A stretch of DNA of 44,228 nt from Escherichia phage BUCT825: sequence record PV040721.1; one strand, 5' to 3'. A program made the translations under genes and the position numbers. Below, in pieces: positions 575 to 32,146 of this stretch. Under the pieces are notes generated by a model that was not told the DNA's origin, did not search any database, and saw only the letters and a program-made list of their open reading frames with translations. Position 1 is the stretch's first letter, and the number at the start of each line of letters is the position of its first letter.

Positions 575-862
575 CTAACTATAATAGTTCGCTATTAGGT
601 CGTCAACCTGTTTAAACGACCCGACGACAAAAACATTCGCACCGCGTTTACGCATACGCGCGTGCTCACGTAACTGATGAGGGTCCGGCTTCGTGTTTTC
701 GTCTTTCTTCACCTCGACAAACCAGACTATGCCGTCTGGGAGAATTACCAGCAGGTCGGGGGCGCCCACTCTATTTTCGTATGACAATTTGCGTACGAGG
801 CCACCGAGGGCCTCGAATCGCTCTTTTGCGTATTTCTGTATTTTGCCCTCAGGCGTACTCAT
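575..862 (-). CDS. VRR-NUC domain nuclease (95 aa)
   Basis: Small protein with GAPDLLV...VEVK motif typical of VRR-NUC/PD-(D/E)XK fold. Confidence 0.65.
   Translation of the reverse strand: MSTPEGKIQKYAKERFEALGGLVRKLSYENRVGAPDLLVILPDGIVWFVEVKKDENTKPDPHQLREHARMRKRGANVFVVGSFKQVDDLIANYYS
578..606 (-). promoter_or_regulatory. sigma70-like promoter, minus strand (-35 TTGACG 601-606, 17-bp spacer, -10 TATAGT 578-583), inside the 3' end of the VRR-NUC gene
   Basis: Reverse complement reads TTGACG-N17-TATAGT; near-identical to elements at 3987-4015 and 7083-7111. Confidence 0.6.
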
Positions 863-3304: not shown

Positions 3305-3931
3305 TTAGCGGCGGCGACGTTCGCGGCGCGGTGCTTCATCTTCTTCGTCGTCTTCCAGGTCATTGACGCTCGCAGCGACTTTAGAACCGCCGAACGCTTT
3401 GCCTTCGCCAACGTATTTAATCGCCAGCAGGTTAACGCCGAGGACTTTGTATTTCTGGCTGAACCAGATTTCAACGCTTACGTTAGCTAAGCATCCGCTG
3501 TAAACCTGTTCACCTTCAATCTGTTCACCGTCTACATTGAAGTCCTGTTCTACCTGAGTCTCACCTTTTTTAGAGGTTACAATCAGCGGCTGCTTCTGTG
3601 CCTTCGCTTTGAAGTAGAAGCCTTCCGGGAAGTCTTCAAACGGATTGTCACGCTCGGCAATGTCTTTAATCGCACATTTATCCATGTGCTTACCTTCGCC
3701 GTAGTTGGACTTCATCCACTTCTCGGCGGCGGCTGCACCTAACGCTTCTTCAACTACAGCGTAAACGGTGTCGTAGAGCGCGTCGATTTGCGCGTGGTCG
3801 GACGGCAGGATAATAGTCGCGCTGTACTGACCTTTAGTGATTGAACCATCATCATTTTCACGGTCTTTTTCGCGTTCGAATACGTTAACCCAAGCAGTGT
3901 TTACTTTACGCAGATTTAATTTCAGTCCCAT
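3305..3931 (-). CDS. putative ssDNA-binding protein (DUF2815-like), 208 aa with acidic/arginine-rich tail
   Basis: Position between nuclease and polymerase, own promoter and terminator, acidic C-terminus DDEEDEAPRRERRRR; family assignment from memory. Confidence 0.45.
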   Translation of the reverse strand: MGLKLNLRKVNTAWVNVFEREKDRENDDGSITKGQYSATIILPSDHAQIDALYDTVYAVVEEALGAAAAEKWMKSNYGEGKHMDKCAIKDIAERDNPFEDFPEGFYFKAKAQKQPLIVTSKKGETQVEQDFNVDGEQIEGEQVYSGCLANVSVEIWFSQKYKVLGVNLLAIKYVGEGKAFGGSKVAASVNDLEDDEEDEAPRRERRRR

Positions 3932-3986: not shown

Positions 3987-4015
3987 ACTATAATAGCTAA
4001 CTATTCAGGTGTCAA
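3987..4015 (-). promoter_or_regulatory. sigma70-like promoter, minus strand (-35 TTGACA 4010-4015, -10 TATAGT 3987-3992)
   Basis: Reverse complement TTGACA-N17-TATAGT; conserved with 578-606 and 7083-7111. Confidence 0.65.
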
Positions 4016-5831: not shown

Positions 5832-6031
5832 TTCCTTACCCTCGCAGAATTAATCCACGTGAAAACATCGTCAATAGAAAAATCGCCGTCGAAAACCTTC
5901 TCAACTTTGCTGGCCTTCTTGACCGTCGTAGGGTGTTTGTTGTCTACCGCCTGAAATACGTAAACCAAATCATTTTCAGCGACAACGCTACCAGAAATCA
6001 TAAGACCACTTTTCTTAGCTAAAATAGCCAT
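5828..6031 (-). CDS. hypothetical protein (67 aa)
   Basis: ORF with overlapping start/stop; conserved SD context CTGAGGGTCG upstream. Confidence 0.5.
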   Translation of the reverse strand: MAILAKKSGLMISGSVVAENDLVYVFQAVDNKHPTTVKKASKVEKVFDGDFSIDDVFTWINSARVRK

Positions 6032-6042
6032 AATTCCGACCC

Positions 6043-6258
6043 TCAGTAGTACGGCGCAAATTCACCTTTAACGGCGGGACGAATTGTATGTACCGCCGTT
6101 TTATCGGTTGGGTACATGTCCGCCCAATATTCGCCAGCGGCATAGTCAAGAGTCCCGCGCCACGCACCATTCAAAACAAAGAATTGCTGACAACCCACAT
6201 ATGAGTCACTTATTTCTACAACTATTTGTTCGTTTATTACTTTGTATACGTTACTCAT
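6043..6258 (-). CDS. hypothetical protein (71 aa)
   Basis: ORF; conserved SD context CTGAGGGTCG upstream. Confidence 0.5.
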   Translation of the reverse strand: MSNVYKVINEQIVVEISDSYVGCQQFFVLNGAWRGTLDYAAGEYWADMYPTDKTAVHTIRPAVKGEFAPYY

Positions 6259-6278
6259 TATTACGACCCTCAGTTAAA

Positions 6279-6294
6279 GCGGCCCGAAGGCCGC
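6279..6294 (-). terminator. GC-rich hairpin (GCGGCC-CGAA-GGCCGC), possible weak terminator on minus strand
   Basis: 6-bp GC stem, 4-nt loop, followed on minus strand by TTTAACT. Confidence 0.3.
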
Positions 6295-6301
6295 CAGATA
6301 A

Positions 6302-6802
6302 TTATTCTTCTTCGAAATACTTGTTCTTGATTGCTGTCAAGCGTTCCAGGTATTCAGCCAGGTCTTCGTCTTTAATCGCTGCAATCTTCATTTTCTTACC
6401 AGTGAACTCTTCCAGCAGTTCATCAGAATCGTCGCACGCGGCATCGCTAGGACCTTCATTAATTGCATCGTCGATGGCCTGAATCTGGTCACGCAGAGAC
6501 TTGTAATCGACTTCTTCTTTCTCTTCTTCCGGTTCTGGCGCAGGTTCCTCTACTTTAGCTTTACGCGGCTTGCGTTTTGGCTTCTCTTCCTCCGCCGGTT
6601 TAGTGTCAACTACGTCTTCACCTTCAACCGGGATTTCTTTTGTTGCTTCTTCAGCGCACTCAGCTACCGCTTCTTTGGTGTACGATACCGTCTCTACTTC
6701 CAGCGGCGTGGCAACCTGAACAACTTGTTTCGCACTGTTCGCGGCAATCAGTTCATGTGCAACTACGAAACGTTCCAGCAATACTAAGAATTTCTCTAAC
6801 AT
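6302..6802 (-). CDS. highly acidic hypothetical protein (166 aa)
   Basis: Long E/D-rich stretches (EEEKPKRKPRKAKVEEPAPEPEEEKEE, DDSDELLEEF). Confidence 0.55.
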   Translation of the reverse strand: MLEKFLVLLERFVVAHELIAANSAKQVVQVATPLEVETVSYTKEAVAECAEEATKEIPVEGEDVVDTKPAEEEKPKRKPRKAKVEEPAPEPEEEKEEVDYKSLRDQIQAIDDAINEGPSDAACDDSDELLEEFTGKKMKIAAIKDEDLAEYLERLTAIKNKYFEEE

Positions 6803-6826
6803 TTGTTTCTCTCCTGTTTGTGTAAG

Positions 6827-7054
6827 TTACTCACCGTCGCCTTCAGTAAGGCTATCGTCTATTAGTTCAAATTTACCGTTTGAGTGTTGAATAGCTTCTT
6901 GCCCGCAATGGTCACAGACAACAAGTTTATCGAACCCATCAAACTCATCCCCTACTACGCAAGAAAGTACAAATTTATGTTTTGTGCACACTTCTTGCGG
7001 AGCGCCGAAAATTGCTCGAAAACCTTTAGCTATGGCCCCAGTGATTGTGTTCAT
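6827..7054 (-). CDS. small Cys-rich (zinc-finger-like) protein (75 aa)
   Basis: Cys pairs CTKHKFVLSC and CDHCGQ; SD GAGAGGGG upstream. Confidence 0.5.
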   Translation of the reverse strand: MNTITGAIAKGFRAIFGAPQEVCTKHKFVLSCVVGDEFDGFDKLVVCDHCGQEAIQHSNGKFELIDDSLTEGDGE

Positions 7055-7082
7055 ATCTGCCCCTCTCGTTTGGTATGGGCTA

Positions 7083-7111
7083 ACTATAATAGCGAACTAT
7101 TCACATGTCAA
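7083..7111 (-). promoter_or_regulatory. sigma70-like promoter, minus strand (-35 TTGACA 7106-7111, -10 TATAGT 7083-7088), divergent from the Cro-like gene
   Basis: Reverse complement TTGACATGTGAATAGTTCGCTATTATAGT. Confidence 0.65.
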
Positions 7112-7175
7112 TGGGCTTTTCTAAAATAATTAATATGGTACTATTCACATATCAACTGACTAAGGAGTAACTGAC

Positions 7176-7391
7176 ATGCAACCATCTGAACTAGGCATCC
7201 GTGTAGAGCAACGCCGTAAAGAACTCGGTATCTCCCAGCGCCGTCTGGCTGTTCTGGCCGGCGTTTCCCAGGGCGCGATTAACCAGCTTGCACTCGGGGT
7301 AACTCAGGACGTACGCCCGGCAACGCTGTTTAAACTGGCGGAAGTGCTGGAAGTAGACGCCAAGTGGCTGGCGCTAGGTGAAGGGGCGTAA
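7176..7391 (+). CDS. XRE/Cro-like helix-turn-helix transcriptional regulator (71 aa)
   Basis: HTH signature ISQRRLAVLAGVSQGAINQL; SD TAAGGAG upstream; only plus-strand gene in a minus-strand module. Confidence 0.75.
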   Translation: MQPSELGIRVEQRRKELGISQRRLAVLAGVSQGAINQLALGVTQDVRPATLFKLAEVLEVDAKWLALGEGA

Positions 7392-7406
7392 CGCCCCTTT
7401 CTTTTT
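7382..7406 (+). terminator. Intrinsic terminator whose loop is the Cro-like stop codon
   Basis: AGGGGCG-TAA-CGCCCCT followed by TTCTTTTT. Confidence 0.6.
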
Positions 7407-7408
7407 AC

Positions 7409-9667
7409 CTATTCCAAATCCTCCTCTGTCACCACCAGCATCTCATTTGGTTCGTATAGTGTCTTCGGCCTTAATCTATCACCTATTCTTTCGGGTATCC
7501 GGTATGTGCCGGGGACAACTTCACCGTTAACATCACATCCGAGCATCAACTCCCCGTCTTTCAGCATCTTCTCGAGATGATGGTTGGTGATGGCGTGGTC
7601 CCCCGAGTTCGCCACTATCTGCCGTTGGGTAAAACCTCGTCCGGTGTCGTCGGACTGTTGCAGGTCTTCCAGCGCGGCGAGTATTGATTCCTTACGCCCT
7701 TCATCCTTCCCGCGTTTTACAGCATTATTTACGTTTTCTTTACCTTCTTTAGTTAACCCTTCTTCCCGCTCCTTCTCCTCGTCAGTTTTGAACGGCTCGA
7801 AGCCCCACGGCATCAGCACAAGCGCCTTGTGCGGCTCAGGCAGATCGAGGTTTACGATTGTGCCGTATTCCTCTGTGCTACCGAGGAACTCAACTGCACG
7901 GTATTCTTTCGGAGGCGGGGCTTCACGGAACTGTACCGACTCCAGAACCATGCCAACCGTTTTCTGTTGAGGCCCATGCTTAAATTTCGAGTGGTATACG
8001 TTTATCTGGCGGTCGGTAGCGCGCTCAATTGTCAGCTCCACATCAACACCGGCATACAGCGCCCCGCTACCACGGGCTTTCTTTCCACCCTTAGGCGTAT
8101 GGTGGACGACACCCACAGCGGCTTTAGTTGCGTCGCGTACTTTTTTAAGGATGGCGATAACTTTACCCATGCCAATTGCAGTTGATGAACTGTTCTCGTC
8201 GAACTTGTCAATTGTCAGGGCCAGCGTCTGGTTGAGGGTATCGAACGCGACCATACCAATAGGCTCGTCCCCTGCAGCTTCACGCATCCTGCGGATTAGC
8301 GCGGGGATTTTTTTATCACCATGCGCAGCGAGCACCTCACCCATATCAATGACATGTACGTAATCTTTACCTTCCTCGCCGTATTTAGCCGCGAGCGCGT
8401 CAATACGTGTGCGTGTAGCTGCGCCTCCCTCACCGTCGATATAGAAATGGTGGCAACGCTGGGTATCCGCCCCGGCAAACCGGTATCCGGCGGCGCTCAG
8501 GTACATCATCCCCAGCGTATAGAACGATTTGTACGTGCCGGATTCCCCAACAATATCCCAGATACAATCTGACGGCATGTACCCCTCAACGACGAAATCA
8601 GCCTTTACCGGTTCCGGTAGCTCGTCCTCTTCTGAGTCATCATCGTCTTCCAGGTCGTCGAGGCTGCATGAAACAGATTCACGCGCACCCCATCCGATAG
8701 CCTCGGCGACTTCACTGAACGGCAGCCCGGTCGCATCACACGCGTATTTCCACACCTCTTTCGGCGACATGCCTTCGGTTGCCGTGATGTCGGTGTCGTG
8801 AATCATCGTTACGTTCGGCGCTTCATATCCCTCGCGCGGGAAGCACAGCAGGAAGTCGTCCGGGCGCGGGGTCGGGTCGCTGTAGTTTTCTGCGTGTTCT
8901 GGCGTAGCTGGCATCTTAAGGCCACGCGGCGTCATGATGCCGCCGTACTCGAATGCCAGTGCTTCAAACGCATCTGTAAACGCGGTGCGCAGTTCTTCCG
9001 GTATCTGGTAATCAGATGCGCTGCTGATGTCAACGGCTGGGACGCCTTCCAGTAACTCATCAGGGTCAATCAGGTCGTTGCGGCGCGACCAGATAACAGT
9101 AGAGCCAACTGGCGGCAGGTACATCGGCTGCGACAGAGTGAACCCGCTGCGGTCCGCGCCCATGCCTTTGAAGAAGTGCTCCAGTAATCCATGGCGAACA
9201 CGGATGATGCCGCCACCTTCAACCGGGCGGGCCAGCGGCATGACGACGCGAAAGCGCGGCGACTCGTCGGTATGTGATGCCGTGGTGTAGAGACACATCG
9301 CCTGGCGGCTGCGCTTAACCAGGCGCACCGCTTCCCGATACTCTTCCGGTGTTGCGCTATCGAAGTCAAGATACGCCAGCGACGATTTGCTTACAGACGC
9401 ATCACAGCGATAGAAGAAGCCTTTACGCGCTTGCTTAAAGTCACCGGTTTCCGGGTCTTTTACGGTGCTGTGTGTGGAGTCGCACGCGGCGGTGATATAA
9501 CCGGGTGCGGTCTTCGGGTTAATTCCGTCACGGACAGCATCAAGCGGCTGGATTAAATCTTTCAGGTCGCCCAGCGTTGCCGTGTGTGTGGTTCTGACGT
9601 TTATATCCTTTTTCTCGGCCCGCGCGTTGCGACGAGACCACGAGTAGGATAAAATTACATCGGACAT
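7409..9667 (-). CDS. Primase-helicase (N-terminal primase/polymerase-like region plus RecA-like P-loop ATPase), 752 aa
   Basis: Walker A GESGTYKS, HHTPKGG motif typical of RepA/AAA_25-type helicases; large N-terminal domain; C-terminal winged-helix-like tail. Confidence 0.75.
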   Translation of the reverse strand: MSDVILSYSWSRRNARAEKKDINVRTTHTATLGDLKDLIQPLDAVRDGINPKTAPGYITAACDSTHSTVKDPETGDFKQARKGFFYRCDASVSKSSLAYLDFDSATPEEYREAVRLVKRSRQAMCLYTTASHTDESPRFRVVMPLARPVEGGGIIRVRHGLLEHFFKGMGADRSGFTLSQPMYLPPVGSTVIWSRRNDLIDPDELLEGVPAVDISSASDYQIPEELRTAFTDAFEALAFEYGGIMTPRGLKMPATPEHAENYSDPTPRPDDFLLCFPREGYEAPNVTMIHDTDITATEGMSPKEVWKYACDATGLPFSEVAEAIGWGARESVSCSLDDLEDDDDSEEDELPEPVKADFVVEGYMPSDCIWDIVGESGTYKSFYTLGMMYLSAAGYRFAGADTQRCHHFYIDGEGGAATRTRIDALAAKYGEEGKDYVHVIDMGEVLAAHGDKKIPALIRRMREAAGDEPIGMVAFDTLNQTLALTIDKFDENSSSTAIGMGKVIAILKKVRDATKAAVGVVHHTPKGGKKARGSGALYAGVDVELTIERATDRQINVYHSKFKHGPQQKTVGMVLESVQFREAPPPKEYRAVEFLGSTEEYGTIVNLDLPEPHKALVLMPWGFEPFKTDEEKEREEGLTKEGKENVNNAVKRGKDEGRKESILAALEDLQQSDDTGRGFTQRQIVANSGDHAITNHHLEKMLKDGELMLGCDVNGEVVPGTYRIPERIGDRLRPKTLYEPNEMLVVTEEDLE

Positions 9668-9725: not shown

Positions 9726-9959
9726 TTATTCCAGGTCTTCTAAAGTAGCGGTCATTCCGCGAACTTCGGCAACAGCACTATATTTCCCGCCAACATTTTT
9801 CACGACACCAGATTTAACCAGTACCTTCAACGACCCTTCAATAATGGCGGAACTATAGTACCTAAAATAACTACGGCGCAAGTCCATAACGCTGCACGAC
9901 CCTTTTTTACAGGTTAATGAAACGACTGCCGTAAATACGCGGGACTGGAACTCGGTCAT
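9726..9959 (-). CDS. hypothetical protein (77 aa)
   Basis: ORF with stop/start overlap to upstream gene. Confidence 0.5.
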   Translation of the reverse strand: MTEFQSRVFTAVVSLTCKKGSCSVMDLRRSYFRYYSSAIIEGSLKVLVKSGVVKNVGGKYSAVAEVRGMTATLEDLE

Positions 9960-10126
9960 TTTACATTCTCCTTAATCCACGCTTCCACTTTCTCCGGGTT
10001 GAAAGTACCCGGCTGCCGGCGGCCCATAATACGGATACAACAATCCGGGAACTTCCCACTCTTTAACCAGTTATTCAGCGTGCGACGGGTAACCCCAATA
10101 CGCTCGGCTACTTCATTCTGTGTCAT
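9956..10126 (-). CDS. small HTH DNA-binding protein (AlpA/excisionase-like fold), about 56 aa
   Basis: MTQNEVAERIGVTRRTLNNWLKSGKFP; ATG at 10126 with GGGGGT SD; the longer ORF to 10159 would overlap the -10 of its own promoter. Confidence 0.6.
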   Translation of the reverse strand: MTQNEVAERIGVTRRTLNNWLKSGKFPDCCIRIMGRRQPGTFNPEKVEAWIKENVK

Positions 10127-10158
10127 TCTCAAACCCCCATTATCAGTTAACGAAACCA

Positions 10159-10187
10159 AGTATACATTGCGAATAATGGGAAATCAA
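10159..10187 (-). promoter_or_regulatory. sigma70-like promoter, minus strand (-35 TTGATT, 17-bp spacer, -10 TATACT)
   Basis: Reverse complement TTGATT-N17-TATACT directly upstream of the small HTH gene. Confidence 0.55.
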
Positions 10188-10202
10188 ACATAATCGCACC
10201 TA

Positions 10203-10231
10203 TTGACATTAAGAAAATCTTCGTTTAAGGT
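10203..10231 (+). promoter_or_regulatory. candidate promoter, plus strand (-35 TTGACA, 17-bp spacer, -10 TAAGGT)
   Basis: Perfect -35 with correct spacing; weak -10; back-to-back with the minus promoter. Confidence 0.35.
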
Positions 10232-10467
10232 GCTTCTATATCTTAGTTACTTTGATTCCTGTTCACCTTGTAAAACCCGCCGAAAACGAGCGCCCAACGC
10301 GAAGTGTTAGGCGGCAGTTTACTGAACATTCGAATTATCGTAACTTTCCTTCCTAAGTATCTCCGGTTGCCCTGGGCAAGCTCTATTCCCATCGGCGGAA
10401 TATATCTTAAGTATCTGATTTTCTTAAAGTGCCGTAGATTCGCAACCGTAAAAATGTAACGATTATT

Positions 10468-10488
10468 GGGCAGGCTTAGGGCCTGCCC
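10468..10488 (+). terminator. Hairpin GGGCAGGC-TTAGG-GCCTGCCC followed by TTTAGTT (terminator-like) inside the 450-bp noncoding region
   Basis: 8-bp perfect stem read directly. Confidence 0.35.
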
Positions 10489-10570
10489 TTTAGTTACCAA
10501 GTAATAAGAATAAAGGCACAACCCTACCTGAAGAATCACAACGGCAACGTAACCATTTTCAATGAATCTC

Positions 10571-10599
10571 TTGCACACCCCAACATAATAGGTTACTAT
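10571..10599 (+). promoter_or_regulatory. Early-type promoter (-35 TTGCAC, 17-bp spacer, -10 TACTAT followed by TCAC)
   Basis: TTGCACACCCCAACATAATAGGTTACTATTCAC; near-identical copies at 12262-12290 (+) and 32118-32146 (-). Confidence 0.6.
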
Positions 10600-10633
10600 T
10601 CACTTATTGAAACTAGACAGAGGAGTTAGGGTT

Positions 10634-10819
10634 ATGTTTAAGAAGGGTCAGTTGGCTAAAACGAAACGCGGCGGACAGTACGTAATAGTTACCCAGGACG
10701 AAAATGAATACAGTATCGCTGTAGATGTATGGGGTCTTATACGAAAGAAACATGGTTACGCCTTCCGCGATAATTTAAAACTCATCGGCAACAATTTTAA
10801 ATTCAAAGGGGCGAAGTGA
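10634..10819 (+). CDS. hypothetical small protein (61 aa)
   Basis: ATG with SD GAGGAG; first gene after promoter. Confidence 0.5.
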   Translation: MFKKGQLAKTKRGGQYVIVTQDENEYSIAVDVWGLIRKKHGYAFRDNLKLIGNNFKFKGAK

Positions 10820-11064: not shown

Positions 11065-11255
11065 TGAAAATTCGTATAACTGATGTTGATTATGTTCTTC
11101 CGCCTGGTTATGGCGATCATTCTTTGCGCCACTTTGGTGTTTCAGTAGGTGATGAGTTTGAGGTTACGTCCTGTAACGACTACGGGTGCATAGTCAAACA
11201 TTGCGGGGAGGAACTGTACGTGCGTAGACGTGAGTATGTGATTATTGAGGACTAA
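11064..11255 (+). CDS. hypothetical protein (63 aa), paralog of next gene
   Basis: MKIRITD...FGVSVGD; start overlaps upstream stop. Confidence 0.5.
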   Translation: MKIRITDVDYVLPPGYGDHSLRHFGVSVGDEFEVTSCNDYGCIVKHCGEELYVRRREYVIIED

Positions 11256-11258
11256 GTT

Positions 11259-11414
11259 ATGAGAATCCGTATAACTGACCGCAGGCTTATAGATTTCGGT
11301 ATCTCGGTAGGTGATGTTTTTCTGGCGTTCAGCAGCAACCATTATGGTTTTATGATTGAGTACAAAGGGTCGTTATTGTTCGTGTATCGGGATGAATGCG
11401 AGGTTATGGTATGA
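11259..11414 (+). CDS. hypothetical protein (51 aa), paralog of previous gene
   Basis: Manual translation MRIRITDRRLIDFGISVGDVF... shares MxIRITD and FGxSVGD with upstream gene. Confidence 0.4.
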   Translation: MRIRITDRRLIDFGISVGDVFLAFSSNHYGFMIEYKGSLLFVYRDECEVMV

Positions 11415-11605
11415 GTCCGTATAACGAATTCCGCTTACGCCGTCTGATTGGCGGTCTGCGCGCCGCCGAGTTTGGTGTTGAATGCTGGGAAAAGGCGAAG
11501 TACACCCCGTTGAAGTCGTGGCATTTGGCTCATGCTAAGGAGGTAGCACAGTACCGTGAGTACAAGTTAAACAGTTTTCTTAAGCACCACGGGGTTGAGT
11601 TATGA
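11411..11605 (+). CDS. hypothetical protein (64 aa)
   Basis: ATGA overlap with upstream stop. Confidence 0.45.
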   Translation: MSPYNEFRLRRLIGGLRAAEFGVECWEKAKYTPLKSWHLAHAKEVAQYREYKLNSFLKHHGVEL

Positions 11606-11745
11606 GAGAGGCATTCGAACGGTGGGCCATCGTCGAGGGTCTGCCGGTTAACAAGGGTTCAAAGAAAGAGTACCTGAACGTTAAGACACGTCTCGCGTGG
11701 CGGGCGTGGAAAGCTGGTGTTCAAACTGCGATGAATACGAGGTGA
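11602..11745 (+). CDS. hypothetical protein (47 aa)
   Basis: Manual translation MREAFERWAIVEGLPVNKGSKKEYLNVKTRLAWRAWKAGVQTAMNTR; ATGA overlap. Confidence 0.35.
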   Translation: MREAFERWAIVEGLPVNKGSKKEYLNVKTRLAWRAWKAGVQTAMNTR

Positions 11746-11748
11746 GAT

Positions 11749-11949
11749 ATGGGTGAGTGGATTAAGTGTAGTGAGATGCTGCCGGGCAACGGTAGTGCAG
11801 ATAAAGAATTCCTGGTGTATGAAACGTTAAATAACGCAGTTCAACACGATTATTACATCGTTCCTGATGACGGGAGAAAGCCTTTCTGGAATCACTACGA
11901 TAAGTACGTGACTCACTGGATGCCGTTACCTGAGCCGCCGGAAGTGTGA
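11749..11949 (+). CDS. hypothetical protein (66 aa)
   Basis: ORF with ATG start; W- and P-rich small protein. Confidence 0.45.
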   Translation: MGEWIKCSEMLPGNGSADKEFLVYETLNNAVQHDYYIVPDDGRKPFWNHYDKYVTHWMPLPEPPEV

Positions 11950-11981
11950 TGTTCAATAGTTTGGGATTTTACTGAGTGACT

Positions 11982-12037
11982 TACGCTGCTACACAGCAGC
12001 GTACAACTTTAACTTAGTGTCGTCAAAAGGCGACACT
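11982..12037 (+). other. Two tandem stable hairpins in an intergenic gap (TACGCTGCT-ACAC-AGCAGCGTA and AGTGTCG-TCAAAAGG-CGACACT)
   Basis: Perfect 9-bp and 7-bp stems read directly; no strong U-tract. Confidence 0.4.
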
Positions 12038-12083
12038 TTCACCAAACGCAACAATCGAAGCGACTATTGCAGGAGACGCAACA

Positions 12084-12254
12084 ATGAAACTGAATGACAT
12101 CGTAACCTGGACCGGTAGAAACGGAGAAAAGCGATTCGGGCTTATTGTTGCGTCAGACGGCAACAAGTACCGTGTTATGCGCTGGTGCCAGTGGGCCAGA
12201 CGCCCGAGGTACTACTGGATTCGTGGCGAACGATTATCTTTAAAACACCAATAA
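12084..12254 (+). CDS. hypothetical protein (56 aa)
   Basis: Manual translation MKLNDIVTWTGRNGEKRFGLIVASDGNKYRVMRWCQWARRPRYYWIRGERLSLKHQ; SD AGGAG. Confidence 0.4.
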   Translation: MKLNDIVTWTGRNGEKRFGLIVASDGNKYRVMRWCQWARRPRYYWIRGERLSLKHQ

Positions 12255-12261
12255 AATTTAC

Positions 12262-12290
12262 TTGCACACTAAGATAGAATAGGCTACTAT
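12262..12290 (+). promoter_or_regulatory. Early-type promoter (-35 TTGCAC, 17-bp spacer, -10 TACTAT followed by TCA)
   Basis: TTGCACACTAAGATAGAATAGGCTACTATTCA. Confidence 0.6.
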
Positions 12291-12322
12291 TCATTTACAC
12301 AGACGAGACAGAGGAAAACGAA

Positions 12323-12508
12323 ATGTTAGAAGTTAAAGTTACAAAAAGAGACAGTGAACTGACTAAAGGCATCTTCAAAGTAGGAACCGTTATAGACCTG
12401 GATTTAGATGACATGGTTGTGTACCACGGTGGGATTGAGTGGAACGTGGCGCGGACCGACAACGGCTTCAAGTTACCAGGAAGTGAGACTCACTTTGCAG
12501 CAGTTTGA
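12323..12508 (+). CDS. hypothetical protein (61 aa)
   Basis: ATG with SD GAGGAAAACGAA context. Confidence 0.45.
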   Translation: MLEVKVTKRDSELTKGIFKVGTVIDLDLDDMVVYHGGIEWNVARTDNGFKLPGSETHFAAV

Positions 12509-12683
12509 AATATGGTTCCGGAGCCGGTTTGGGTTCGCCCCGGCCCGGAAAGACAATGGCTACGCTGAACCAGAGGTTCAGCGGATGTGGGTACGGTGGA
12601 AGGAGAAACAGCGTGAACACGAATGGCAATTTTACGGAGTCGGGTTTCCATGTATGTGCATTAAATGTGGGTTAAAGAAATGA
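12408..12683 (+). CDS. hypothetical Cys-containing protein; overlaps previous ORF by 100 nt, true start unresolved
   Basis: Alternative frame open across stop of 12323-12508; C-terminal CMCIKCG. Confidence 0.3.
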   Translation: MTWLCTTVGLSGTWRGPTTASSYQEVRLTLQQFEIWFRSRFGFAPARKDNGYAEPEVQRMWVRWKEKQREHEWQFYGVGFPCMCIKCGLKK

Positions 12684-12883
12684 CCAGCATCTTATTTATC
12701 TGGGTATTGTCGGCGGGCCAGATGCAACTAGCGGCATCGGAAACGTTTTACTCGATGGAGGCGTGCCAGTCAGCGGCACGCGCTGCAGAGAACGCGCACT
12801 TCTTGTTTCAGGGCGACAAGCCTAACGATTCAGAGGTACGCGCTATCTGCTCACCTAAGCGACTTGGTAAACAGGAGAAGTGA
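12680..12883 (+). CDS. small protein with predicted N-terminal signal peptide (67 aa)
   Basis: MTSILFIWVLSAGQMQLAAS hydrophobic leader; ATGA overlap. Confidence 0.45.
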   Translation: MTSILFIWVLSAGQMQLAASETFYSMEACQSAARAAENAHFLFQGDKPNDSEVRAICSPKRLGKQEK

Positions 12884-12885
12884 TT

Positions 12886-13149
12886 ATGGTACAGAGATAT
12901 TTATTACAAGGCGGTTTAATAGGGCCGCACGACGATGGTGACTGGGTTGGTTACGAAGACTACGCGGAACTTGAGCGTAAGTTCAATGAACTCAGGACAT
13001 GGCGTACGCAGATGCTCAATGCCGCTTTCGACTTTTTAGCGTGGGCAGAAAAAGCGGAAGCCGAGTTACAGAAATACAAAGACCAGTTCCCTGATTACGT
13101 CGAGTGCGCGAACTGTGGGTCAGTTACACATGTGGAGGGGGTGGAGTGA
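12886..13149 (+). CDS. hypothetical protein (87 aa)
   Basis: ATG with SD AGGAG. Confidence 0.5.
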   Translation: MVQRYLLQGGLIGPHDDGDWVGYEDYAELERKFNELRTWRTQMLNAAFDFLAWAEKAEAELQKYKDQFPDYVECANCGSVTHVEGVE

Positions 13150-13151
13150 TT

Positions 13152-13367
13152 ATGGTTCGTAAATATGAAGCGCGAGGGACTGAATTAGGCGGGGACGCAT
13201 TCTACGAAGATTGGGTAGAGGTGGTTCGCTACGAAGATTACAAGGCGCTAAAGACCCATGCCGATGCTATGTGCGAGGCCATGTGTTTGTATGATTTGGG
13301 TGAACGTGTTAGTTTCGAGCCATACATAAATTATACTGAATGGCTGTTGAGTGAGGACGATGTATGA
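13152..13367 (+). CDS. hypothetical protein (71 aa)
   Basis: ATG with SD GGAGGGGG. Confidence 0.5.
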   Translation: MVRKYEARGTELGGDAFYEDWVEVVRYEDYKALKTHADAMCEAMCLYDLGERVSFEPYINYTEWLLSEDDV

Positions 13368-13657
13368 GCCTTGCAACTGACATCCTGAAACGCAGCGGCC
13401 TTGCGCCGCTGTCACCGAGAGCGAACACCAGAATACACAAGCGCCGCCGTAATGCGCTGTACCCGGAGATTCAGGACAGACGCAAAGCTGTCCGCGCCTG
13501 TGGATTCCAGAACGGGAAGGCCGTAAATCTCGGTGAGTTTAAAACACAGGAACGCGCAGCAATCGCTAACCGGTTATTTAATTACTGGAAATCGCTGGGG
13601 TACGATGATATTCCGACGAAACCGCAGAGACGACAATACATCTGGAGACACAAATGA
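13364..13657 (+). CDS. small basic protein with AP2-like DNA-binding signature (97 aa)
   Basis: NGKAVNLGEFKTQERAAIANRLF resembles the AP2/HNH-associated DNA-binding motif. Confidence 0.45.
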   Translation: MSLATDILKRSGLAPLSPRANTRIHKRRRNALYPEIQDRRKAVRACGFQNGKAVNLGEFKTQERAAIANRLFNYWKSLGYDDIPTKPQRRQYIWRHK

Positions 13658-14094
13658 CGACTATCGCGTTCGACGGAAAGACAATGGCCTGTGACACACG
13701 TGTTGTGTGCGGGGATAACTACTACAACACAGATACTAAGATATACGAAAACGATACTTATGTTATCGGGGTAGCGGGTGACGCTGGAGTTGGTACTATG
13801 CTTATCGACTGCCCGTATATCCTCCAGGCCAGACATTATGATTTTGATTTCGAGGCCCTAGTGTATGAGAAAGACGCGGAAAAGGTGTATAAAGTCGCGT
13901 TTTATAAATCATGGGATTGTGCACTTAGTTCAGTTATTCCGGTTGCCGATGCGTACGCTGCCGTTGGGTCCGGTTCCCCTTATGCACTGGCGGCTATGGA
14001 ATGTGGGTATTCGGCGCATGGCGGTGTAGCCGTTGCATCGAAGTTTGACACTAACACCGGCGGCAAGATTATTACCAAACAACTATTAGGATAA
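13654..14094 (+). CDS. HslV/proteasome-beta-like Ntn-hydrolase family protein (146 aa)
   Basis: N-terminus MTTIAFDG (Thr directly after Met, as in HslV MTTIV); GVAGDAG and VGSGSPYALAAM resemble HslV GFAGG and IGSGGPYAQAA; alignment done by eye. Confidence 0.5.
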   Translation: MTTIAFDGKTMACDTRVVCGDNYYNTDTKIYENDTYVIGVAGDAGVGTMLIDCPYILQARHYDFDFEALVYEKDAEKVYKVAFYKSWDCALSSVIPVADAYAAVGSGSPYALAAMECGYSAHGGVAVASKFDTNTGGKIITKQLLG

Positions 14095-14462: not shown

Positions 14463-14727
14463 GCTATTCTGGTTTGTCGTAATGCTGGCAATGGGCGCTT
14501 CGTCCCTGTTCAACGTGTATAATGAACGCGTGGACGACGGGATATTCGGTCGGGTGCTCTATATCCTGTCCGCTATTGTCTGCGCCGCCGGATGTATTCA
14601 CCTGTTACAGGGCGGCATGTCACCTACGCTGCCCGAGACATTAATCACATTAGTTGCGCTGCGCCAGATTCGTCAGGCGTGGCTGTCGTACGGAGGGCAT
14701 AAGCGTGTCTCGAAACATTTCAGATAA
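14456..14727 (+). CDS. second small membrane protein (about 90 aa, 2 TM): holin/antiholin-like
   Basis: ATG at 14456 with SD AGGAGG, overlapping holin stop; TM segments FWFVVMLAMGASSLF and LYILSAIVCAAGCIHLL. Confidence 0.5.
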
Positions 14728-15238
14728 TGGACTTACCGCAGATAAGCTGCGCGAGGTTTTACACTACGACCCCGATACCGGAGTTTTTACATGGAAAGCT
14801 ACACGTGTGCACAATGCTCGGGCGGGAAGTGAGGCTGGCGCCAACCATTGTGCAGGCTATCGCTCCATAGCCTTCGGTGGGAAGCGGTACTTGGCGCATC
14901 GTCTCGCTTGGCTATACATGACAGGGGAATGGCCCAACTCCCTAATAGACCACATAAACGGCGATGGTCGTGATAATAGATTCTGTAATTTACGTGAAGC
15001 CAACAAATCCGAAAACGGATGCAACAAAGGGCCAAGAAAGGACAGCAAATCCGGTATTAAGAACGTTATGTGGCAGAAGCAACAAGGAGGATGGTACGTT
15101 CAATTAAAAATACATAAGATTAAGTATTTTTACGGATACTTTGCGGACCTAGAACTAGCCGCGCTAGTTGCCGAAGAAGCTAGAGAGAAGATACACGGGG
15201 TTTTCGCGAACCATAAATTACGGGAAGGTGCTTTATGA
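14654..15238 (+). CDS. HNH homing endonuclease with AP2-like domain (likely start GTG 14705)
   Basis: HRLAWLYMTGEWPNSLIDHINGDGRDNRFCNLREANKSEN (HNH); conserved N-terminal LTADKLREVLHYDPDTGVFTW; stop overlaps endolysin ATG (ATGA). Confidence 0.8.
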   Translation: MRCARFVRRGCRTEGISVSRNISDNGLTADKLREVLHYDPDTGVFTWKATRVHNARAGSEAGANHCAGYRSIAFGGKRYLAHRLAWLYMTGEWPNSLIDHINGDGRDNRFCNLREANKSENGCNKGPRKDSKSGIKNVMWQKQQGGWYVQLKIHKIKYFYGYFADLELAALVAEEAREKIHGVFANHKLREGAL

Positions 15239-15979: not shown

Positions 15980-16001
15980 ATCTGTTTTCTGTAATGACTA
16001 G

Positions 16002-16030
16002 TTGACTATTATCCTCGACCCTATTATATT
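16002..16030 (+). promoter_or_regulatory. sigma70-like promoter (-35 TTGACT, 17-bp spacer, -10 TATATT)
   Basis: TTGACTATTATCCTCGACCCTATTATATT upstream of the 16065 gene block. Confidence 0.55.
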
Positions 16031-17416: not shown

Positions 17417-17587
17417 ATGTTCAGTGACATCAACGCGGCAATCGAGGAAGCAATATGGCGTCGTTACAACGGCGAGCAACAACGGCACTTCTGCCTGGTG
17501 CAACGTGGGAACATGATTGCTGTAGTGCAGGACCGCGATAACAAATATCCGAATGCGATGTGGACAACGAGGAATTTCTTAGGATGA
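17417..17587 (+). CDS. hypothetical protein (56 aa)
   Basis: Manual translation MFSDINAAIEEAIWRRYNGEQQRHFCLVQRGNMIAVVQDRDNKYPNAMWTTRNFLG. Confidence 0.35.
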   Translation: MFSDINAAIEEAIWRRYNGEQQRHFCLVQRGNMIAVVQDRDNKYPNAMWTTRNFLG

Positions 17588-17820
17588 TTACCAGCATTCC
17601 TAACCTGATTAAAGAATTTGGCACGATGGCCGAGACGTGCCGACAAACCGGCATCAACGAAATGACGATTGCGAAGTACAGCAAAGACGTGGACTGCGAG
17701 CGCCACGTAATTTATAACAACCGTCTGATGACGCACGTTAAAACAAGCCCGGTGTTATTCACGCGCCGGGGTATCACTAAAACTGAGCAACGTATCGCAC
17801 GAGAGGAGAGCGGGGAATGA
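17584..17820 (+). CDS. small HTH-like protein (78 aa), last gene before the late region
   Basis: ATGA overlap; helix-turn-helix-like segment ETCRQTGINEMTIAKYSKD. Confidence 0.45.
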   Translation: MITSIPNLIKEFGTMAETCRQTGINEMTIAKYSKDVDCERHVIYNNRLMTHVKTSPVLFTRRGITKTEQRIAREESGE

Positions 17821-22929: not shown

Positions 22930-22978
22930 GTGCCTGTGATTATTCCAGTTATTCCACTCAATTGTAAATGTTGGAATA

Positions 22979-22994
22979 AACTATTCGAATAGTT
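22979..22994. promoter_or_regulatory. Perfect 16-bp palindrome AACTATTCGAATAGTT (candidate operator) overlapping a -35 hexamer
   Basis: Self-complementary sequence read directly; half-site ACTATTC recurs in several promoters. Confidence 0.5.
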
Positions 22995-23021
22995 GACTTT
23001 TCACTTAAAATGTGCTAAGCT
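22993..23021 (+). promoter_or_regulatory. candidate promoter (-35 TTGACT, 17-bp spacer, -10 TAAGCT)
   Basis: Hexamers and spacing read directly; weak -10. Confidence 0.35.
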
Positions 23022-23632: not shown

Positions 23633-23741
23633 CGATGCCGATGAGGATTTAGCCATTGACGTTCAGAACACAGAATGTGTACGGCAACTGCGTCTGAAAG
23701 TGTTCATGTTGCAGGATTACGTGAGGAATATTCTGGAATAG
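23478..23741 (+). CDS. Rz1: o-spanin (Rz1-like lipoprotein), 87 aa, GTG start, overlapping Rz in another frame
   Basis: Signal peptide with lipobox LASC, Pro-rich mature part SSPAPSQTPIPSPD; SD AGAGGTG before GTG. Confidence 0.65.
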   Translation: MKSLSTLKRLAAACALSTMLASCSSPAPSQTPIPSPDTTMMQPPCKLAAPSSDADEDLAIDVQNTECVRQLRLKVFMLQDYVRNILE

Positions 23742-23823
23742 TTGCCTTGCATGTTGGAATAATTTATTCTTGACATGTAAATCCGGGTGGCCCGGGTTCC
23801 AACGTCCAGGGGACATACTGACT

Positions 23824-31895: not shown

Positions 31896-32087
31896 CTACT
31901 TCTCTTTCACGTTCGAGTTGCAAGCCCAGATTAAAATAAATACCCACGGCAGCAGAACCCAACCAAGAAACAGATTAGCCATGAATATCGCTAACTTCGC
32001 TTTATGGTTACGGAAGTACGCAACCAGGAAAGGCGCGAAATAAGCGAGCAGTGCAAACAGAATTAAGGAAACTGGTAAACTGGACAT
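31896..32087 (-). CDS. small 2-TM membrane protein (about 63 aa), first gene of antisense cassette
   Basis: Hydrophobic segments LPVSLILFALLAYFAPFLVAYF and LFLGWVLLPWVFILIWA; SD GAAGGGG. Confidence 0.5.
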   Translation of the reverse strand: MSSLPVSLILFALLAYFAPFLVAYFRNHKAKLAIFMANLFLGWVLLPWVFILIWACNSNVKEK

Positions 32088-32117
32088 TTTAAACCCCTTC
32101 ATTGTTGGTGTAAGTGA

Positions 32118-32146
32118 ATAGTACCCTATTATATTGGGGTACGCAA
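32118..32146 (-). promoter_or_regulatory. Early-type promoter on minus strand (-35 TTGCGT, 17-bp spacer, -10 TACTAT followed by TCAC) driving the antisense cassette
   Basis: Reverse complement TTGCGTACCCCAATATAATAGGGTACTATTCAC, nearly identical to the promoter at 10571-10599. Confidence 0.6.

Follow-up and report, generated by a model that had tools for sequence, protein, structure and literature searches.

A dispersed 14-bp inverted repeat at promoter-like sequences of Escherichia phage BUCT825, a putative operator of an adjacent Cro-like protein

The operators of phage 434 Cro are 14 bp long and of the form ACAA-N6-TTGT, and in the 434 system a glutamine (Q28) contacts the first adenine of the operator. 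Autoregulated repressors of the XRE type usually have two operators flanking their own divergent promoter region, and in a promoter with a normal 17-nt spacer, a site that falls in this spacer or overlaps the -35 or -10 hexamer is in a repressor position. Other members of this type from lambdoid or defective prophages, viz. DicA/DicC and P22 C2/Cro, share the HTH_3 fold and pair up to maintain or exit lysogeny. The present work concerns the genome of Escherichia phage BUCT825 (sequence record PV040721.1; the whole stretch of 44,228 nucleotides that was analyzed is referred to below as the window), in which a 14-bp inverted repeat (dyad), AATA(G/T)-N4-CTATT, is found at seven promoter-like sequences. 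Two of these copies (O1 and O2) lie in a 121-bp divergent intergenic stretch beside the gene for a 71-amino acid (aa) Cro-like protein with a helix-turn-helix (HTH) motif. We propose, with a probability of about 0.6, that this adjacent protein binds the dyad and represses the promoters on which it is located.

By its sequence the window is a Kagunavirus genome. Its region 6000-9000 is 97.7% identical to that of Escherichia phage vB_EcoS_XY1 (Kagunavirus, subfamily Guernseyvirinae), and as the two genomes are collinear, with 37.6 of 44.2 kb aligned and a largest unaligned gap of 2.2 kb, the annotation of XY1 could be transferred to it. Kagunavirus and Jerseyvirus records matching this region number in the hundreds. 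The complete genomes compared were those of XY1, K1G, the Jerseyviruses SE2 and SP-101, St162 and one Klebsiella phage, and 80 IMG/VR loci around homologues of the HTH gene were also compared.

The locus resembles that of phage 434 in several respects. The 71-aa protein is a single-domain HTH_3 protein for which 434 Cro is the best match in both sequence and fold; the dyad has the same length of 14 bp and likewise conserves its outer bases while its centre is free; the operators are placed, as in 434 OR/OL, on core promoter elements of a divergent region that includes the promoter of the regulator itself; and a glutamine is conserved at the beginning of the recognition helix, the operator in turn beginning with A. 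It differs from 434 in having two operators, 44 bp apart, where 434 has a tripartite OR, in having five more operators dispersed over the genome on replication and accessory operons, in the sequence of the arms (AATAG versus ACAAG) and of the recognition helix (SQGAINQ versus KQQSIQL), and in the lack of a CI partner, integrase or lysogeny module. Opposite the Cro-like gene, where a lambdoid immunity region has its CI-type repressor gene, no such gene is present; the divergent 75-aa open reading frame (ORF) found there has no Pfam match and only a PHROG of unknown function. Integrase or lysogeny genes are not annotated in XY1, K1G or SE2, the ORFs of the window not having all been searched one by one, and none are reported in published Kagunavirus genome analyses. 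Hence, whereas the DicA/DicC and P22 C2/Cro proteins act in pairs, a single regulator of the same fold is present here; the phage is strictly lytic and its lone Cro-type regulator is not an immunity switch. The layout of the locus is as follows.

6827-7054, minus strand: 75-aa ORF, to the left of the intergenic stretch, with replication genes beyond it
7083-7111, minus strand: promoter P_left, TTGACA (7111..7106), 17-nt spacer, TATAGT (7088..7083), 11 of 12 consensus matches
7088-7101, no strand assigned: O1, AATAG-CGAA-CTATT, occupying 13 of the 17 spacer positions and 1 nt of the leftward -10
7096-7106, plus strand: first copy of an 11-mer, consisting of the last centre base and right arm of O1 and 5 nt of variable flank
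7100-7127, plus strand: candidate rightward promoter TTCACA-16-TAAAAT, 10 of 12 matches, with its +1 covered by O2
7132-7145, no strand assigned: O2, AATAT-GGTA-CTATT, with an imperfect but conserved left arm, overlapping the -10 or the start site of the Cro-like promoter
7136-7144, plus strand: candidate rightward promoter with an extended -10, TGgTACTAT, from direct reading of the sequence, with its -10 covered by O2
7140-7150, plus strand: second copy of the 11-mer, consisting of the right arm of O2 and flank, nearly invariant in Kagunaviruses together with its surroundings
7176-7391, plus strand: gene for the 71-aa HTH (Cro-like) protein, to the right of the intergenic stretch, starting 30 bp downstream of O2
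7380-7400, plus strand: terminator-like hairpin between the convergent Cro-like and helicase-primase genes

Behind P_left, whose -35 and -10 are kept in all lineages examined, are ORF 6827-7054, ORF 6302-6802 and small downstream genes. Both rightward promoters are candidates for the Cro-like gene, which, given the terminator-like hairpin at its end, forms a one-gene unit. The AATAT left arm of O2 may make it a weaker site than O1. A search of 7060-7176 for a third operator with up to one mismatch found none, leaving only these two sites, 44 bp apart from centre to centre.

The initial annotation of this region, made from the sequence alone, had drawn attention to an exact direct repeat of 11 bp, ACTATTCACAT, at 7096-7106 and 7140-7150, 44 bp apart, with one copy inside the spacer of the minus promoter and the other at a candidate -10 upstream of the Cro-like gene. 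These observations are correct: both copies are exact, the first lies within the spacer of P_left, and the second overlaps TACTAT (7139-7144), which has TG just before it and the HTH gene downstream. However, 36% of dinucleotide-shuffled versions of the window contain one or more exact pairs of 11-mers not more than 60 bp apart, and the repeat alone is therefore not beyond chance. It is also not conserved; after CTATTCA at the first copy, the bases vary among Kagunaviruses and a 1-nt indel is seen. The direct repeat was rejected as a functional unit for these two reasons, and from the alignments its CACAT tail is variable flank and the exact 11-mer repeat is a strain-level coincidence over a conserved dyad. 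As a separate observation, the two copies agree at 16 of 17 nt over a longer stretch (ACTATTCACAT[G/A]TCAA), and on the minus strand O2 with its flank (7126-7155) resembles a degenerate second P_left, TTGATA-18-AATTAT, with 9 of 12 matches, which suggests that an old tandem duplication of a promoter-operator cassette lies behind the likeness of O1 and O2.

A similar outcome was obtained for ACTATTC, which had been proposed as a core recurring in promoters throughout the genome. The copies listed for it exist (4000, 10595, 12286, 22980/22987 and, on the minus strand, 32116), with every coordinate given off by one, but the list is incomplete. It omits copies at 23736 on the minus and 27527 on the plus strand, and the family site at 583-596, which escaped the search because its flank is CTATTA and not CTATTC. 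The enrichment of ACTATTC is marginal: 10 copies are observed versus 4.4 expected, and 2 of 100 shuffles reach 10. As a core it was also rejected because 2 of its 10 copies are outside promoter-like sites, one of which (27527) looks like a chance match, while the other (23736) is inside a separate TTATTCCA/GGAATA repeat cluster (23720-23765). The palindrome at 22979-22994, which had been counted as a member of the set, has its half-sites in opposite (everted) order and belongs to a different local repeat cluster; this palindrome and the elements at 15997 and 22988 were kept out of the operator set due to the misfit of half-site order or spacing.

The actual unit is the 14-bp inverted repeat, of which ACTATT is one arm. 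At promoters, ACTATT was in every case the right arm of this dyad. Sequences matching AATAGNNNNCTATT with up to one mismatch occur 10 times in the window versus 0.92 expected, and exact matches to AATA-N6-TATT occur seven times versus 0.62 expected, a number that none of 100 shuffles reached. The seven exact sites begin at 583, 3992, 7088 (O1), 7132 (O2), 10587, 12278 and 32117, their consensus in the window is AAnTATAATAGnnnACTATTCA, and all seven are located at promoter-like sequences. When inverted repeats with 5-bp arms and gaps of 0-8 were scanned without bias toward any sequence, the dyad ranked first in the window, XY1 and K1G and tied for first in SP-101; the runners-up were GC-rich and of the stem form seen in terminators. 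In XY1, the annotated intergenic DNA amounts to 3,742 bp and contains six of the eight dyad matches, compared with an expectation of 0.12; none of 2000 intergenic shuffles reached six. The same scan also recovers ACAA-N6-TTGT sites beside 434 cro in L081. A reading of the dyad as an RNA hairpin was dropped because its 5-bp A/T arms are too weak to matter. The dyad is very probably a functional protein-binding element. The more general suggestion of the initial annotation, that a site for a phage transcription factor is common to several promoters, is its best-supported part, although both the unit and the list of members were wrong. The five operators outside the O1-O2 region, none of which is assigned a strand, and the promoters on which they lie are as follows.

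583-596: operator occupying the spacer of a promoter on the minus strand, TTGACG-17-TATAGT (606..578); it falls within the 3'-terminal part of a nuclease-like ORF (575-862), upstream of ORF 353-544
3992-4005: operator occupying the spacer of TTGACA-17-TATAGT (4015..3987), a minus-strand promoter upstream of the gene for a single-stranded DNA-binding protein (3305-3931; Pfam Enc34_ssDNA-bd) and the DNA polymerase gene
10587-10600: operator with a right arm that serves as the -10 of TTGCAC (10571-10576)-17-TACTAT (10594-10599), a plus-strand promoter upstream of ORF 10634-10819 (61 aa)
12278-12291: operator sharing bases with the -10 of TTGCAC (12262-12267)-17-TACTAT (12285-12290), a plus-strand promoter upstream of ORF 12323-12508, which encodes a Gp54-like protein
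32117-32130: operator sharing bases with the -10 of TTGCGT (32146..32141)-17-TACTAT (32123..32118), a minus-strand promoter upstream of a superinfection-immunity gene (31896-32102) and then an exonuclease gene

Promoter overlap was judged by consensus only, with -35 and -10 hexamers 16-18 nt apart as the criterion for sigma-70. On this basis six of the sites form two classes, with O2 placed at the candidate promoters of the Cro-like gene. At class 1 sites (583, 3992 and O1) the dyad fills the spacer of a strong minus-strand sigma-70-like promoter, TTGAC(A/G)-17-TATAGT, with 10-11 of 12 matches and replication genes downstream. At class 2 sites (10587, 12278 and 32117) the right arm lies in the -10 of a weaker promoter, TTGCAC/TTGCGT-17-TACTAT, for which 7-8 of 12 matches were counted by eye. 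The dyad begins 4 nt after the -35 in class 1, 10 nt after it in class 2 and 7 nt after it in more distant relatives. As it keeps its sequence but not its register, and both orientations are used, it is not simply a part of the promoter.

The pattern of conservation was examined in alignments of five regions that were anchored on the flanks and not on the motif. The O1-O2 region was compared in 36 distinct versions from Kagunaviruses, and the arms are unchanged throughout, whereas the central 4 bp and the CACA flank vary; the centre of O1 alone has six forms (CGAA, TGAA, CTAA, CAAA, CGAG and CTAG). For O2, AATATGGTACTATT was found in 37 Kagunavirus loci, and the AATAT left arm is present in every Kagunavirus locus that has O2. 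The sites at 583 and 3992, aligned for 46-47 loci including those of Jerseyvirus, show conservation of the arms and both hexamers and variation of the centre and of the bases between arm and -35. The alignment of the 12278 region contained too few loci for a judgement of conservation, and the operator at 32117 has a syntenic site in K1G, SE2 and SP-101. Across about 40 Kagunavirus loci, invariant arms are combined with a variable centre and flanks. Syntenic AATAG-N4-CTATT sites are shared by Kagunavirus and Jerseyvirus, the flank in the latter being CTATTA and not CTATTC.

In more diverged lineages, whose HTH protein is about 40% identical, a like promoter architecture is found with other arms.

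L054: arms AATAC..GTATT
L055: arms AATA[CGT]..[CG]TATT
St162 group: arms ATTA[GC]..GTAAT
L071/L075: arms ATTAGC..GCTAA

The spacer arm, on which the -10 places no constraint, is lineage-specific, viz. AATAG in Kagunavirus and Jerseyvirus, AATAC in L054 and ATTAG/C in the St162 group and L071. In class 2 promoters the second arm mirrors the first (AATAC..GTATT, ATTAC..GTAAT, ATTAGC..GCTAA).

These results bear on the possibility that no dedicated factor is involved and that a 20-mer containing the dyad is a promoter cassette for the host RNA polymerase, duplicated and kept for promoter strength, with the palindrome resulting incidentally from A/T-rich, -10-like hexamers on the two strands. Such a cassette would be consistent with the right arm serving as the -10 hexamer in the three class 2 promoters, with the overlap of the left arm and ACTATAAT in the three class 1 promoters, with the asymmetry of the 20-mer beyond its arms (TGAATAG versus CTATTAT) and with the likeness of O2 and its flank to a degenerate P_left noted above. 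However, it leaves unexplained why the spacer arm, which has no known contact with RNA polymerase, is invariant amid varying neighbours, why the dyad occupies three registers relative to the -35, and why in promoters where it overlaps the -10 both arms change together between lineages. We regard an origin of the pattern in promoter strength alone as decidedly unlikely.

The repeated element itself has already been published and is not new. For the Kagunavirus fBC-Eco01, seven 20-mers with the consensus tgAATAGTa-ccTATTat-T were obtained with PHIRE and were listed as phage RNA polymerase promoters (PMC9825357), one of which, PP5 (TGAATAGTACCATATTAATT), is the reverse complement of O2, and seven PHIRE promoters were also reported for phage Golestan (PMC7203180). 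The element and its copy number of seven are the same as those described here. Both lists were produced by an automated repeat finder, and the two papers do not mention the dyad, its overlap with sigma-70 promoters or a link to the Cro-like protein (PMC9825357; PMC7203180). Apart from this published label, a phage-encoded polymerase has little to recommend it: the annotations of XY1, K1G, SE2, SP-101, St162 and the Klebsiella phage contain no RNA polymerase gene, the collinearity of the window with XY1 leaves no unaligned gap big enough for such a gene, and the element is palindromic and lies within -35/-10 pairs of the sigma-70 type in both orientations and three registers, instead of being oriented at a fixed distance to the start of transcription. 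As the relatives examined have no annotated RNA polymerase gene, the label is in our view almost certainly wrong.

The 20-mers could also be seen mainly as short patches of homology at operon boundaries that serve module-shuffling recombination between related phages. The sites do mark module boundaries, and the gene directly behind P_left and O1 is variable, the 75-aa ORF at this place being common to Kayfunavirus and absent from most Kagunaviruses. However, 14-20 bp is short for homologous exchange, and a pattern of conserved arms with a variable centre is that of protein recognition, not of homology. Recombination as the main role is thus very unlikely, although it could coexist with an operator function. 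With respect to the ORF itself, it lies on the minus strand, encodes four cysteines, corresponds to phrog_32657 (function unknown) and is replaced by other genes in most relatives. Its nucleotide identity of about 87% to a gene of the T7-like Kayfunavirus phages suggests a recent exchange between a siphovirus and a podovirus.

If the dyad is an operator, the 71-aa Cro-like protein is the best candidate for its binder, although this is not proof, as its gene is the only HTH gene that was found in every dyad-bearing lineage. The protein matches Pfam HTH_3 (PF01381) over residues 11-65 with 47.2 bits versus a cut-off of 23 (E-value 2.3e-12), and in a phmmer search of PDB sequences its best solved relative is 434 Cro (1zug; E-value 2e-6), which is matched over its full length and also has 71 aa. 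A single-sequence AlphaFold2 model (pLDDT 81.7) contains five helices, and the top Foldseek match of this model in the PDB is 2cro (TM 0.74/0.81), with 3cro also matching. Weak but significant matches of sequence and fold were likewise obtained with P22 C2, and the records of relatives call the gene "DicA" or "Cro". The glutamine aligned with Q28 of 434 Cro does not vary among the lineages, and all variants of the operator have A as their first base; by analogy, this residue may make the same contact with adenine in the 71-aa protein.

The dyad may instead be real but bound by another protein, the possible candidates being an excisionase-like protein of the HTH_17 family (9956-10159, minus strand), a NinH-like protein (17560-17820) or a host protein. 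The first of these is 79% identical between Kagunavirus and Jerseyvirus, which both use AATAG..CTATT, whereas the Cro-like proteins of the two genera are only 49% identical. In addition, RNA-seq of the Kagunavirus vB_Eco_K1B4 showed an HTH-domain gene to be the only annotated one among four genes peaking within 30 min (PMC12645636). However, the HTH_17 protein was found only in Kagunavirus and Jerseyvirus, and neither tblastn nor a profile search detected it in St162, L054, L055, L068, L071 or L075, all of which have equivalent dyads. The NinH-like protein was not found on the L054 and L071 contigs, and its HTH-like segment is nearly identical in St162 and the window despite their different arms. 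A host factor is made unlikely by the fact that Jerseyvirus and St162-type phages both infect Salmonella and have different arms; this observation favours a factor encoded by the phage. Considering these points together, a binder other than the Cro-like protein appears unlikely to us.

A number of observations weigh against the assignment of the operators to the Cro-like protein, or against their interpretation as operators, and they are brought together here. The recognition helices of Kagunavirus (SQGAINQ) and Jerseyvirus (SQSLITH) differ while their operators agree, and the St162 helix (TQSAISH) resembles that of Jerseyvirus, yet the arms in St162 are different. A code relating recognition helix to half-site was sought across seven lineages and no clean rule emerged; hence, no simple code supports the assignment. 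The HTH_17 protein, in view of its higher identity, stays a candidate within Kagunavirus and Jerseyvirus. The three class 2 promoters are below the threshold of the consensus scan. The left arm of the class 1 sites shares bases with the conserved ACTATAAT element, and constraint on the promoter could account for some of the conservation of this arm. In the St162 group, class 1 promoters keep TATT beside the -10 and have ATTA as the distal arm, and mixed sites are as frequent as symmetric ones, so that a strict symmetric switch of arms is only partly true. Lastly, in the time course of vB_Eco_K1B4 the polymerase and superinfection-immunity genes are classed as "late", although its resolution is too poor for this to be given weight (PMC12645636). 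The classes in that study are 5-30, 50-90 and 110-120 min compared with a latent period of 30 min, and phage reads were below 10% at 50 min (PMC12645636). The gene numbers of this phage are not securely mappable to the window, and the sampling is too coarse to give the order of promoters. For the same reason, the description of the promoters as "early" in the initial annotation is not established; the sites span operons for replication, the regulator, small genes and superinfection immunity/exonuclease.

Our preferred interpretation, that the 71-aa protein is a repressor acting through these sites, leads to the following proposal. The class 1 promoters are near consensus and should not need activation, and given this and the placement of the operators, steric repression is proposed. 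A dimer of the 434 Cro-like protein would bind the seven dispersed operators and exclude RNA polymerase from the seven promoters. By acting upon its own promoter through O2, the repressor would limit its own synthesis (negative autoregulation), and as it accumulated it would turn down three replication-gene operons, two small-gene operons and the superinfection-immunity/exonuclease island. Cro-like repressors acting on palindromic operators of 14 bp are textbook biology, to which a dispersed regulon and lineage-specific arms add a modest twist. The proposal provides a testable regulatory map, consisting of seven operators, one candidate regulator and eight promoter assignments, for a genus that is widely proposed for use in therapy, and payloads inserted behind these promoters would probably come under negative control. 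The changes in arms between lineages also offer a small natural series for studying drift of XRE proteins and their operators. A broader possibility, which we consider unlikely, is that Guernseyvirinae and their relatives run their replication and accessory operons through one orphan Cro-like repressor and dispersed operators embedded in promoters, with the arm types that have diverged between host-sharing lineages (AATAG, AATAC and ATTAG) representing "immunity groups", i.e., heteroimmunity without lysogeny. If so, a phage entering an already infected cell would have its equivalent promoters shut when it is a close relative of the resident, whereas the promoters of a relative with another arm type would be unaffected.

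Some other features of these genomes were noted in the course of this work. Two clusters of TTATTCCA / GGAATA(A/G) repeats are located at 22940-23000 and 23720-23765. Within the first, which is conserved in K1G and SP-101, a perfect palindrome of 16 bp (AACTATTCGAATAGTT) immediately precedes TTGACT-17-TAAGCT; conservation of GGAATAGTTGCC extends to St162. From their sequence, these clusters look like a separate regulatory motif near the late genes and not a Cro-type operator. Strong promoter-like sites are present at 15997-16030 and 22988-23021, where AATAG/ACTAG is fused to the -35 (A[AC]TAGTTGACT). Despite its ATTA-type operator arms, St162 has AATAGTTGCA at the corresponding position and retains the AATAGTTG(A/C) element beside the -35; the fused element is probably specific to the promoter and not an operator.

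An ORF at 14654-15238, between the holin and endolysin genes, matches the HNH_3 endonuclease family (E-value 3.1e-14), and the segment 14732-15267 has no megablast match to XY1; this ORF probably represents an inserted homing-endonuclease gene. A region of about 420 bp (10160-10586), bounded by the HTH_17 gene and the 10571 promoter, is unannotated in XY1, K1G and SP-101. It contains a 111-aa ORF with a GTG start, whose similarity to Jerseyvirus is found only in broken frames, and it is probably non-coding DNA. A search of 10100-10700 for iteron repeats revealed nothing notable. In the Salmonella phage St162 (L005), G-rich repeats (GGGGGAGA-like) and two copies of GAATAGTTATG occur at 12685-12977, downstream of the primase/helicase gene; this iteron-like region may be an origin of replication. 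In the Salmonella phage FSL SP-101 (L004), the island behind the equivalent of the 32117 operator (11249-13810) includes, according to the annotation of the record, a gene for an Ant-like anti-repressor. Lastly, the 61-aa product of ORF 12323-12508 in the window matches Pfam PF25180, "Phage antiviral trigger protein Gp54", with an E-value of 4.6e-26.

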